Shown: positions 37,824 to 39,746 of the stretch, piece after piece | Layout of the letters: every line of letters starts with the position of its first letter | How positions within the stretch are numbered: position 1 is the stretch's first letter | From: Escherichia phage JEP6 | DNA length: 64,000 nucleotides | Direction: 5' to 3' (one strand) | Sequence record: MT764206.1 | Made by a program: the position numbers and the translations under genes | Notes under the pieces: model-generated | Told to the model about the DNA's origin: nothing | Databases searched by the model: none | What the model saw: the letters and a program-made list of their open reading frames with translations, nothing else

Positions 37824-37900
37824 TGGTCGAGGCAGAAGGATTCTAACCTTCAACCTACGGATTAGAAGTCCGTTGCTCTATACAATTGAGCTATGCCCCG
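37824..37900 (-). tRNA. tRNA-Arg (anticodon UCU)
   Basis: manual cloverleaf: acceptor CGGGGCA/TGCCTCG, D-stem GCTC/GAGC, anticodon loop CTTCTAA, T-loop TTAGAAT, CCA encoded. Confidence 0.8.
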
Positions 37901-37903
37901 TAA

Positions 37904-38569
37904 TTAAAATTTCATTTTTCGACCTTTAAACCATCCTTCTGGAATTGGGTCAGTTTTCTTAATACGTTTAGAAACTTTTTCATCTAATGAATGAATCCAC
38001 ATCATACCAAATTGGGAATTCTTTTCGCCCTGTTGGTGTTTATTTCTGGCGTGAGATTCTTTCATTTTATTAATAGTTTCAGGAGTATGATGCTTATTTA
38101 AAAATCTGCTATTATTTAAAAATTTTTCCCTGTATTCAGGAGTTGACCACAAGCGTTTAAATACATTTGAACCATGTTTACGATATTTTTCTTGAAGTAA
38201 AATATCATTTTTAAAACGTGACTTAAACGATTTAGCTCCTTTTAAACTAGCGTCTTTCTTCTGGTTTAGCATCCCAGGAATATTTATATGATCCCATCCA
38301 CCTTCACCACCTAATTTCAAATTATAAACATCAGGGCGCTTTAAAAACTCTTCAGTCACAATATTCTTTTCTGACTCAAACATAGAGGTTTTATCGTCAA
38401 AGAACTCTAATATTTCTTTAGAAAAATTTTCTATACCATACTTATCTTGGGCTCTTTTTAATAATTTACCAGAACCCATATATCCATCATCTAAATTTTC
38501 GGTAGAATGCACACCAATATAAATTTTATTATTAATTTTATTTGTTATTTTATAAGTGTAATGGAACAT
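37904..38569 (-). CDS. segB: GIY-YIG homing endonuclease (SegB-like) within the tRNA cluster
   Basis: 221 aa; N-terminal YTYKITNKINNKIYIGV...GYMGSG GIY-YIG motif; located between tRNA-Ile and tRNA-Arg. Confidence 0.7.
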   Translation of the reverse strand: MFHYTYKITNKINNKIYIGVHSTENLDDGYMGSGKLLKRAQDKYGIENFSKEILEFFDDKTSMFESEKNIVTEEFLKRPDVYNLKLGGEGGWDHINIPGMLNQKKDASLKGAKSFKSRFKNDILLQEKYRKHGSNVFKRLWSTPEYREKFLNNSRFLNKHHTPETINKMKESHARNKHQQGEKNSQFGMMWIHSLDEKVSKRIKKTDPIPEGWFKGRKMKF

Positions 38570-38610
38570 AAATATCTCCTATTTCTAAGAGTATTTATGT
38601 TCCCAAAATA

Positions 38611-38682
38611 TGGCCCTGGGTGGAATTGAACCACCATCTGGCGATTATGAGTCGCTTGCTTGAACCTTCCAGCTACAGGGCC
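38611..38682 (-). tRNA. tRNA-Ile (anticodon CAU; lysidine-type AUA reader, Met not excluded)
   Basis: manual fold: acceptor GGCCCTG/CAGGGCC, anticodon loop CTCATAA, T-loop TTCAATT; no encoded CCA. Confidence 0.7.
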
Positions 38683-38688
38683 TTGATA

Positions 38689-38761
38689 TGCTGATTGACG
38701 GAATCGAACCGCCGACGTCCTCATTACAAGTGAGGTGCTCTACCTACTGAGCTAAATCAGC
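38689..38761 (-). tRNA. tRNA-Thr (anticodon UGU)
   Basis: acceptor GCTGATT/AATCAGC, D-arm GCTC-AGTAGGTA-GAGC, anticodon loop CTTGTAA, T-loop TTCGATT. Confidence 0.85.
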
Positions 38762-38768
38762 GAAATTA

Positions 38769-38855
38769 CGGAGGCGATAGGATTTGAACCTATGAGTCGC
38801 CGGAGCGACTGCCGGTTTTCAAGACCGGTGCATTAAACCACTCTGCCACGCCTCC
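38769..38855 (-). tRNA. tRNA-Ser (anticodon UGA), type II with long variable arm
   Basis: acceptor GGAGGCG/CGCCTCC, anticodon stem CCGGT/ACCGG with loop CTTGAAA, long variable arm, T-loop TTCAAAT. Confidence 0.8.
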
Positions 38856-38857
38856 AG

Positions 38858-38931
38858 TCTCCGTGGCAGGATTTGAACCTACGACATTCTGCTCCCAAAG
38901 CAGACGCTCTACCAAACTGAGCTACACGGAG
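38858..38931 (-). tRNA. tRNA-Pro (anticodon UGG)
   Basis: acceptor CTCCGTG/CACGGAG, D-arm GCTC-AGTTTGGTA-GAGC, anticodon loop TTTGGGA, T-loop TTCAAAT. Confidence 0.85.
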
Positions 38932-38941
38932 TAAATTAAAT

Positions 38942-39015
38942 TGGAGCGGATAATGAGAATCGAACTCACATCATCAGATTGGAAGTCTGAGGTAATACCA
39001 TTATACGATATCCGC
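38942..39015 (-). tRNA. tRNA-Gly (anticodon UCC)
   Basis: acceptor GCGGATA/TATCCGC, anticodon stem TCAGA/TCTGA loop CTTCCAA, T-loop TTCGATT, CCA encoded. Confidence 0.8.
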
Positions 39016-39020
39016 AAATT

Positions 39021-39107
39021 TGGTGCGAGAAGTGGGACTCGAACCCACAAGGAAATCATTCCGCAGCATTTTAAGTGCTGTGCCTTTACCAATTTGACCA
39101 TTCTCGC
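39021..39107 (-). tRNA. tRNA-Leu (anticodon UAA), type II
   Basis: acceptor GCGAGAA/TTCTCGC, anticodon stem CAGCA/TGCTG loop CTTAAAA, long variable arm, T-loop TTCGAGT, CCA encoded. Confidence 0.8.
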
Positions 39108-39113
39108 GTTATA

Positions 39114-39746
39114 TTATTTATTACGTGAAAAAGACTGTTCTATCAATTCTGGACACTTTCGTTCTATCCATTTTCTAGCTTTTTGTGGGCTTATACCTAT
39201 TATTTTAGCAGCTTTACTAACCCATCCAAATTTAGAATAATCGATTTTAACTAATTCTTCGTAAATTTCATCAGTTAAAATCTTTTCATTAATATTTACC
39301 AGTAAATGATATAATTTGTTATCATTAGCAATTTTAATGAATCTTTTATAGTTTCCGCCTTTACTTAAACCTAATGAAGTAATTGCAGATGATATAGTAG
39401 CCGAATTTAATAATGCGTTTAAAATTTCTTCATCACTAACATTATAACGCTTTTTATTATTTTTAATATTTTTACCAGCAAAAGTATCAGTTTGCGAGTG
39501 ACAGTTTGGACATAATAATCTTAAATTTGATTTAAGATGATTTTTGTTATTTCCATCAATATGGTCTAATTGCAGAACAATATGCTTATTTTGCCATTTT
39601 GAAATTTTACAAATTGCACACTCATATGGAAAAATATTTTCTTTTATTATTTTGTCTTTCAGCTTTCCTGTGCTAAAATTTGGGTGTTTTCCTTCAAAAA
39701 TTTCAGCTAATTTAGTATCCATAATATGATTCCCAATTATTAACAA
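39114..39746 (-). CDS. HNH homing endonuclease (Mob-like) immediately upstream of the tRNA cluster
   Basis: 210 aa; HNH motif LQLDHIDGNNKNHLKSNLRLLCPNCH. Confidence 0.7.
   Translation of the reverse strand: MLIIGNHIMDTKLAEIFEGKHPNFSTGKLKDKIIKENIFPYECAICKISKWQNKHIVLQLDHIDGNNKNHLKSNLRLLCPNCHSQTDTFAGKNIKNNKKRYNVSDEEILNALLNSATISSAITSLGLSKGGNYKRFIKIANDNKLYHLLVNINEKILTDEIYEELVKIDYSKFGWVSKAAKIIGISPQKARKWIERKCPELIEQSFSRNK

Follow-up and report, generated by a model that had tools for sequence, protein, structure and literature searches.

A free-standing HNH endonuclease gene in the place of tRNA-Gln at the 5' end of the tRNA operon of Escherichia phage JEP6 and related T4-like phages

The 64,000-nt stretch of DNA analyzed here, hereafter the window, comes from Escherichia phage JEP6 (MT764206.1), a T4-like coliphage of the genus Tequatrovirus, and all features of the window described below lie on its minus strand. 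Where phage T4 carries tRNA-Gln, as the first tRNA of the operon, we found a free-standing gene for an endonuclease of the HNH type. We consider it likely, with a probability of roughly three in four, that a free-standing HNH homing endonuclease gene displaced tRNA-Gln(UUG) at this position and that a single allele created in this way was spread by homing. That the endonuclease itself caused or propagated the replacement is what we infer from the arrangement of the locus. Judged by its gene order, the operon is a variant of the T4-type operon and not the T4 arrangement itself. Six tRNAs, segB, rnaD, and rnaC are kept in T4 order, the HNH gene has taken the place of tRNA-Gln, and tRNA-Arg is present as another allele together with an extra open reading frame (ORF).

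ARAGORN detected seven tRNA genes in the window, and the Rfam tRNA model RF00005 returned the identical set with scores of 59-74 bits and no others. Six of them, tRNA-Leu(UAA) (39107-39021), tRNA-Gly(UCC) (39015-38942), tRNA-Pro(UGG) (38931-38857), tRNA-Ser(UGA) (38856-38768), tRNA-Thr(UGU) (38761-38689), and tRNA-Ile(CAU) (38682-38611), form a tight array (38611-39107) orthologous to that of T4, and tRNA-Arg(UCU) (37900-37824) follows after segB. ARAGORN labeled tRNA-Ile(CAU) as Met, but it is the counterpart of the tRNA-Ile annotated in T4. The DNA identity to T4 amounts to 100% for Leu-Gly, 93.3% for Pro-Ser, and 92.9% for Thr-Ile, the last over 65% of the segment. These results agree with the first-pass annotation of this DNA, which had read the same six tRNAs, a SegB-like GIY-YIG gene, and tRNA-Arg in this order; the identity of segB to its T4 counterpart supports the same reading.

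The first-pass annotation had also proposed that tRNA-Gln is missing, to be checked by a tRNA scan, and indeed neither ARAGORN nor the Rfam tRNA model detected a tRNA-Gln in the window. Its statement that the T4 array starts with tRNA-Gln ahead of tRNA-Leu proved true for T4, T2, and T6. In these three phages, as well as in RB18 and vB_EcoM_F1 (F1), tRNA-Gln stands immediately 5' of tRNA-Leu, and upstream of it T4 has a leader of ~97 nt preceded by ORF trna.2. Thus, the T4-type operon of eight tRNAs (Gln-Leu-Gly-Pro-Ser-Thr-Ile-[segB]-Arg, rnaD, rnaC) is not what the window contains. ARAGORN recovered tRNA-Gln from T4, T2, T6, RB18, and F1 (5/5 control loci), so that a failure of detection does not account for the lack of tRNA-Gln in the window. 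Many Tequatrovirus genomes are 93-98% identical to the window across the locus, the closest being Escherichia phage HY03 with 98.3% over 4.8 kb. The complete HY03 genome (170,770 bp) holds the same seven tRNAs, no other, and no tRNA-Gln according to ARAGORN; hence, in the closest complete relative, tRNA-Gln is absent and not relocated.

In the alignment with T4, homology is unbroken across trna.2 and the leader and extends a further 7 nt into the start of tRNA-Gln. There it stops, to resume only at the single spacer base before tRNA-Leu. These break points indicate that the HNH gene physically replaces tRNA-Gln, leaving a short 5' scar, and was not inserted beside it. The scar, TGGGAAT (39735-39729), was identified by alignment with the tRNA-Gln genes of T4, T2, T6, RB18, and F1; in phage BP32, 9 nt of tRNA-Gln are kept (TGGGAATTA). 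The cassette (39109-39728, 620 bp) stands in for nucleotides ~8-73 of tRNA-Gln and is nearly all HNH ORF, with 6 nt ahead of the ATG and 5-6 nt past the stop codon. The gene itself (39114-39722) encodes a free-standing, F-TflIV-like protein of 202 residues that matches phrog_14736 over its full length (E=5e-124). The HNH ORF that had been noticed upstream of tRNA-Leu is accordingly real, but it probably begins with the ATG at 39722, the start given in the annotations of relatives, and not with the TTG at 39746 of a mechanical ORF list. Its stop codon (39116-39114) is separated from tRNA-Leu by 6 nt (39108-39113) instead of the 7 nt counted earlier, and the last base of this spacer, a C, corresponds to the Gln-Leu spacer base of T4. 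tRNA-Gln was absent from all seven HNH-positive loci examined and present in all five HNH-negative ones. The alignment, which places the HNH gene where T4 has tRNA-Gln, supports the earlier suggestion of an endonuclease-associated remodeling of the 5' end of the cluster. That reading had overlooked the 7-nt remnant of tRNA-Gln, the non-T4 allele of tRNA-Arg with its extra ORF, rnaC and rnaD, and the layout of the locus in 63 database genomes.

The HNH gene is found in 63 phage records at 97.4-100% identity, with one copy in each. A probe across the junction of leader, remnant, and HNH gene and a second one across the junction of the HNH gene and tRNA-Leu each matched 63 records with at least 80% of the probe covered. 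The coincidence of these three counts indicates that all carriers share one replacement allele. T4-type tRNA-Gln occurs in 433 records as two alleles (at least 95% and ~89% identical to T4), and the tRNA-Leu 5' region in 509 records, counted as any match to the HNH-tRNA-Leu probe, most of them on the Leu half only. The HNH gene is therefore carried by ~12% of these phages and tRNA-Gln stands at that place in ~85%, which amounts to a presence/absence polymorphism: genomes that are otherwise collinear differ at this one locus (63 with the cassette versus 433 with tRNA-Gln). No Tequatrovirus intermediate with both HNH gene and tRNA-Gln was seen among the 63 carrier records. An exact 25-mer of the HNH 3' end, searched against IMG/VR for other junctions, gave zero matches.

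The surroundings of the cassette vary among the carriers. The upstream neighbor is either trna.2 or an ORF of the RB32ORF134c type, and the downstream arrays comprise 6 to 10 tRNAs, with or without segB: six in CM8, which has a SegB-like gene in the Pro slot, seven in the window and HY03, eight including Tyr in BP32, nine in phiD1, and ten including Tyr, Asn, and His in L14 and ACG-C40, both of which lack segB. L14 and the window share the HNH gene with 100% identity; the trna.2 of L14, however, is 97.2% and its trna.3 88.5% identical (the latter over 44% of the ORF), and its cluster has no segB. In the loci compared, the cassette, with 97.9-100% identity, is at least as well conserved as the flanking ORFs with 82-98%, which may be an indirect sign of preferential inheritance. 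The differing backgrounds and the mismatch between gene and flanks in L14 suggest that the cassette moves, or recombines, independently of its neighbors.

Among seven HNH alleles, we counted 15 polymorphic sites, 11 synonymous and 4 non-synonymous, all four of the latter in phiD1; the other six alleles encode an identical protein despite up to nine nucleotide differences. This mostly synonymous variation points to purifying selection on the protein; the gene is thus not in decay. An alignment of 25 homologues has C35, C38, H54, N66, C71, C74, and H75 as invariant residues. The HNH motif (D53-H54, N66, and C71-P-N-C74-H75) and C35/C38 are invariant or nearly so, zinc-binding cysteines included, and a C-terminal GW...PQK motif is also kept. 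The AlphaFold2 model, with a mean predicted local distance difference test score (pLDDT) of 89, places the nuclease domain at the N terminus, followed by two helical domains (residues 97-145 and 151-201), which are candidate DNA-binding domains. No paralogue of the HNH gene was detectable elsewhere in the window (best other tblastn match E=0.19).

The closest characterized homologue is F-TflIV, the product of hegA, of phage T5, with 34.7% identity over 84% of the HNH protein. Later papers refer to it as an H-N-H site-specific endonuclease from the tRNA gene region of T5 (Akulenko et al., 2004, as cited in PMC2330249 and PMC5714182). Both proteins are classic HNH (His-Me finger group 1) nucleases and may share a C-terminal region of the helix-turn-helix type; T5 hegA is annotated with helix-turn-helix domains of the LuxR/Fis type. 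Like the window gene, hegA lies inside a tRNA cluster, where it starts 24 nt after tRNA-Ile2. However, T5 belongs to the Demerecviridae and the window phage to the Straboviridae, and hegA stands between tRNAs and ORFs, with no specific tRNA known to be replaced. The records of ACG-C40 and BP32 already annotate the window-type gene as F-TflIV-like.

The second system to be compared resides in the same operon. SegB cleaves inside the tRNA genes of phages without segB, drives its own inheritance, and eliminates tRNA markers of the recipient; its preferred site lies in the tRNA-Asn gene, which is absent from the segB-carrying T4 (PMC2330249). SegB has recently been tied to tRNA gene amplification against the Septu defence (PMC13096335). 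Like the HNH gene, segB is an endonuclease gene at the place of tRNA genes of relatives (Tyr and Asn); segB is co-transcribed with the tRNAs. Unlike the HNH protein, SegB belongs to the unrelated GIY-YIG catalytic family, and BLASTP of the HNH protein against SegB gave no match. SegB makes double-strand breaks. The T4 enzymes MobA-MobE are likewise free-standing, combine an N-terminal HNH with a C-terminal DNA-binding region, and are distributed patchily in T-even phages. MobE and MobA are preferentially inherited (PMC2988022; PMC2790892), and the Mob enzymes and F-TflIV fall into the same superfamily group (PMC5714182). On the other hand, none of the five mob genes of T4 lies in the tRNA region, and T4 lacks the window HNH gene.

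Closer homologues occupy the syntenic place in other T4-like phages, bordering the tRNA array on its 5' side and preceded by gene 1, 57A, 57B, and trna.x ORFs, and sites filled and empty of the HNH gene are also seen in two other genera. In the Klebsiella-type contig L017 (Marfavirus-like), the HNH gene (68% identity) begins 14 nt after an intact tRNA-Gln and occupies exactly the slot of tRNA-Asn, the next one after tRNA-Gln in phage PWKp18. The tRNA-Gln of this contig (3911-3986) differs from the PWKp18 copy (L020, 913-985) at 9-11 positions, mostly compensatory and in the anticodon and T stems, whereas the adjoining tRNA-Met has no differences and the flanks have 2-3 per 75 nt. It thus looks like a co-converted or resistant allele. 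In two Erwinia-type contigs (58% identity), an HNH segment stands in place of the segment that holds tRNA-Gln in phage Cronus. A possible Gln remnant upstream of the ATG in these contigs (TGGGTAAT) was too short and too divergent to be claimed. Downstream of the HNH gene in L017, ~400 nt (4604-5009) are non-coding, without a called gene or tRNA, and conserved in PWKp18; this segment may hold a structured RNA.

Taken together, the HNH family lies in three lineages on either side of the 3' boundary of tRNA-Gln. No differences fixed between the HNH-positive and HNH-negative Tequatrovirus genomes compared are present in the leader (97 nt) or the Leu-Gly segment (166 nt). If the enzyme cuts near its own gene, a carrier would consequently be immune only through the lost body of tRNA-Gln. 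On account of the placement in three lineages and the unchanged flanks, we regard tRNA-Gln or its 3' junction as the best candidate for the target, and cleavage probably takes place in or next to tRNA-Gln. The two tRNA-Gln alleles of Tequatrovirus, the T4 type and the RB3 type, are 89% identical and differ throughout the anticodon stem. We rejected them as proof of diversifying selection at the target because Pro-Ser and Thr-Ile also occur as ~93% alleles.

Upstream of the cassette, a putative MotA-dependent (middle) promoter of the tRNA unit follows right after the stop codon of trna.2 (AATATGCTTTA, 12 nt, TATTAT; 39832-39805). The same or nearly the same element is found in T4, T6, T2, RB18, F1, and all HNH-positive loci, and a similar one in the Klebsiella-type locus L017. 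Its layout, AATATGCTTTA-12 nt-TATTAT, fits the consensus of MotA-dependent middle promoters of T4. A generic sigma-70 scan yielded no more sites than shuffled sequences and did not flag the conserved element, so that the middle-promoter call is one of consensus and conservation. The element is followed by the conserved 5' leader of the tRNA operon (39736-39804), here also the 5' untranslated region of the HNH gene. The leader is 93.8-97.9% identical in 11 relatives, where it precedes tRNA-Gln or the HNH gene, and reaches 97.9% with T4 and T6. Folding of the leader together with the ORF start was not better than that of shuffles (z = -0.69), and we do not claim that the leader fold sequesters the ribosome-binding site. 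The TGGGAAT scar may serve as the ribosome-binding site of the HNH gene, since no other purine-rich, Shine-Dalgarno-like element precedes the ATG. At the other end, a hairpin resembling an intrinsic terminator (37145-37122; 10 bp, 7 G-C pairs, T run) lies downstream of the rnaC homologue and probably ends the tRNA transcription unit. With the promoter element in front and the hairpin behind, the HNH ORF apparently heads the tRNA precursor transcript as its first cistron. Co-transcription with tRNAs and processing by RNase P have been discussed likewise for segB and the F-Tfl genes of T5 (PMC2330249).

These elements can be arranged into a model of how the HNH gene would have displaced tRNA-Gln. 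The HNH ORF would use the middle-type promoter of the operon itself and make up the 5' part of the tRNA precursor, and the RNase P cut at the 5' end of tRNA-Leu would sever the message 6 nt past the HNH stop codon. The enzyme would then nick or cleave the HNH-less allele of co-infecting relatives in or beside the tRNA-Gln gene. Recombinational repair off the HNH-positive genome would copy the cassette in and remove tRNA-Gln. An HNH-positive genome would be immune, its target being missing, and the phage would thereafter rely on a host tRNA for its preferred Gln codon, CAA.

Several points weigh against this explanation. The promoter and Shine-Dalgarno assignments are consensus matches only. 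Ordinary recombination without homing could also give the mosaic backgrounds of the cassette. The HNH gene beside an intact tRNA-Gln in L017 indicates that loss of tRNA-Gln is not required. Moreover, free-standing endonucleases often cut hundreds of base pairs away from their own gene, and the target need not be tRNA-Gln (PMC2988022). As for the protein, the Pfam HNH profile (PF01844) scored 17.3 bits, below the curated cut-off of 21.4. Homologues with 58% identity do carry a PF01844 match in precomputed data, and our reading is that the score reflects a limit of sensitivity and not the absence of the domain. Neither a sequence search of the PDB with the HNH protein (best E=0.39) nor a Foldseek search of the AlphaFold2 model against the PDB (no E<0.1) gave a significant match. 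Weak local Foldseek resemblances to the HNH nucleases Cap5, McrA, and Gme HNH and to homeodomain and helix-turn-helix proteins were non-significant and were not used to assign a fold.

Homing might not be what maintains the gene. The nuclease could have been domesticated and kept for a benefit to the phage, be it exclusion of competitors or, like SegB, recombination or amplification of the tRNA array, with mainly vertical inheritance and flanks shuffled by ordinary recombination. The strong purifying selection on the HNH protein would fit such a role, as would the unchanged location of homologues, at the 5' border of tRNA arrays, in three T4-like genera and the part of SegB in tRNA gene amplification against Septu (PMC13096335). 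However, only 63 of the ~509 genomes with this tRNA-Leu carry the gene, and such patchiness in collinear genomes is typical of selfish homing genes. The cassette also exceeds its flanks in identity. We thus regard domestication in place of homing as unlikely, bearing in mind that benefit and homing are not mutually exclusive.

Still less probable is a course of separate events, in which the HNH gene was inserted beside an intact tRNA-Gln, the tRNA was later lost by an unrelated deletion, and the product drifted to its present frequency. The L017 homologue directly 3' of an intact tRNA-Gln resembles the first of these steps, and the loss of tRNA-His without any endonuclease gene in the Erwinia-type contig L018, compared with Cronus, resembles the second. 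Yet the HNH gene of L017 sits in the next slot, that of tRNA-Asn, and not in an intergenic position. Both junctions are common to all 63 Tequatrovirus records without an intermediate holding HNH gene and tRNA-Gln, and the Erwinia-type contigs again have an HNH segment for the Gln segment. Finally, although the window covers 64 kb of a genome of ~168 kb, there is next to no chance that tRNA-Gln is only apparently missing, being elsewhere in the genome or lost to an artefact of assembly or detection, because two independent detectors concur, both junctions are clean and recur in 63 independently sequenced records, tRNA-Gln was recovered in the five control loci, and the complete genome of HY03, 98.3% identical over the region, has only these seven tRNAs.

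The remainder of the operon is also mosaic. The GIY-YIG homing endonuclease gene segB (37904-38569) lies between tRNA-Ile and tRNA-Arg as in T4 and is orthologous to T4 segB, with 94.0% DNA identity over the full length and a Pfam GIY-YIG score of 25.9 bits above the cut-off of 22.6. tRNA-Arg represents a third allele, 100% identical in HY03, 98.7% in F1, and ~77% to the T2/RB18/BP32 type, with no match in T4 and T6. It folds as a clean cloverleaf with the T-loop UUAGAAU (C56 to A) and a D-loop without the usual GG, possibly with a compensating U19-A56 elbow pair. The T-loop change breaks the core recognition motif of SegB, GGTTCRANTCC, with segB lying 3 nt upstream. Between tRNA-Arg and the rnaD homologue, an ORF of 116 residues and unknown function (37455-37805, phrog_3355) is shared with T2, RB18, F1, BP32, and L14 but not with T4 and T6; it ends in a stop codon directly adjoining the 5' end of the rnaD homologue. 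The rnaD (about 37341-37458) and rnaC (about 37196-37334) homologues were placed by offset transfer from T4 with an accuracy of ~1 nt, and the segment spanning both (37196-37458) is 97.4% identical to the T4 segment (L001, 2326-2669) with annotated rnaC and rnaD. Between e.8 and rnaC lies another ORF of unknown function (157 residues, 36594-37067, phrog_2280), which T4, BP32, and ACG-C40 lack and L14, CM8, phiD1, RB18, and F1 have. With tRNA-Gln replaced at one end and the Arg allele and extra ORFs at the other, the operon is mosaic at both ends, in line with the mosaicism of the tRNA region already revealed by a comparison of T2L, RB1, and RB3 (PMC2330249).

Further observations concern the vicinity and the relatives. 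The middle of the trna.3 homologue (ORF 40123-40536), at 40319-40500 on the minus strand, has no nucleotide match to T4 and is 93-95% identical to HY03, CM8, phiD1, and F1; it appears to mark another mosaic breakpoint just upstream of the operon. CM8 (L010, 2174-2782) and RB18 (L014, 2179-2829) have a SegB-like GIY-YIG gene between tRNA-Gly and tRNA-Ser, the slot of tRNA-Pro elsewhere, which by its position is a second case of an endonuclease gene in a single tRNA slot. In the Erwinia-type contig L018 (4823-4831), the tRNA-His of Cronus (L021, 1651-1726) is lacking, 76 nt being reduced to ~7 nt without an endonuclease gene there, and a single slot is thus lost precisely even where no gene has been inserted. 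In the area homologous to rnaC and rnaD, ARAGORN called a 94-nt tRNA-Lys(UUU) in BP32 (L002, 2292-2385) and an irregular tRNA in ACG-C40 (L009, 1416-1511), and made no tRNA-type call in this area for T4 or the window. The HY03 record (NC_031047.1) begins inside tRNA-Arg and has the e-region genes on the opposite strand ~55-62 kb away, rearranged relative to the window and T4, which could be an assembly artefact.

The loss of tRNA-Gln concerns a codon that the phage uses heavily. Of the Gln codons in 59 long ORFs of the window, 72% are CAA (387 versus 149 CAG), so that the lost tRNA(UUG) matched the preferred Gln codon, and no shift away from CAA is visible in these ORFs. The tRNA genes of T4 are dispensable on laboratory hosts, which fits the ability of a selfish element to displace one of them. 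The loss of tRNA-Gln likewise appears tolerable, the phage being viable and the allele widespread without the tRNA for its preferred codon. Beyond their help with codon usage, phage tRNAs replace host tRNAs destroyed by defence systems (PMC13096335), and what sets the tRNA repertoire of a phage is therefore of practical interest.

In our literature search, we found no description of the tRNA-Gln scar, of the single shared allele, or of the repeated occurrence at the Gln position of other genera. A search combining tRNA-Gln, HNH endonuclease, and Tequatrovirus returned no papers, and reviews and SegB papers made no mention of the gene. The replacement of tRNA-Gln by an HNH gene, common to 63 records, thus seems undescribed so far. 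It changes no concept, as the role of endonucleases in making T-even tRNA regions mosaic has been recognized since 2008. By analogy, its replacement logic is that of SegB and its catalytic family that of F-TflIV and T4 Mob, which makes it a case of ordinary selfish-gene remodeling. Nevertheless, the locus illustrates, in a clean and natural form, how a selfish nuclease gene can delete one specific tRNA, and the presence of related HNH genes in or beside the tRNA-Gln slot of three genera provides a concrete, testable candidate target, which would add an HNH counterpart to the SegB story. We tentatively raise the possibility that this HNH lineage is specialized on the tRNA-Gln gene or its 3' junction across several T4-like genera and swaps itself for one tRNA slot, which would be that of Gln in Tequatrovirus and the Erwinia-type phages and the next one in Klebsiella-type phages. 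If so, the divergent tRNA-Gln alleles of the T4 type, the RB3 type, and L017 would reflect selection for resistance to cleavage. Such enzymes, together with SegB, would then be a main force that sets the tRNA repertoire of these phages and, hence, how they cope with tRNA-cleaving defences of their hosts.

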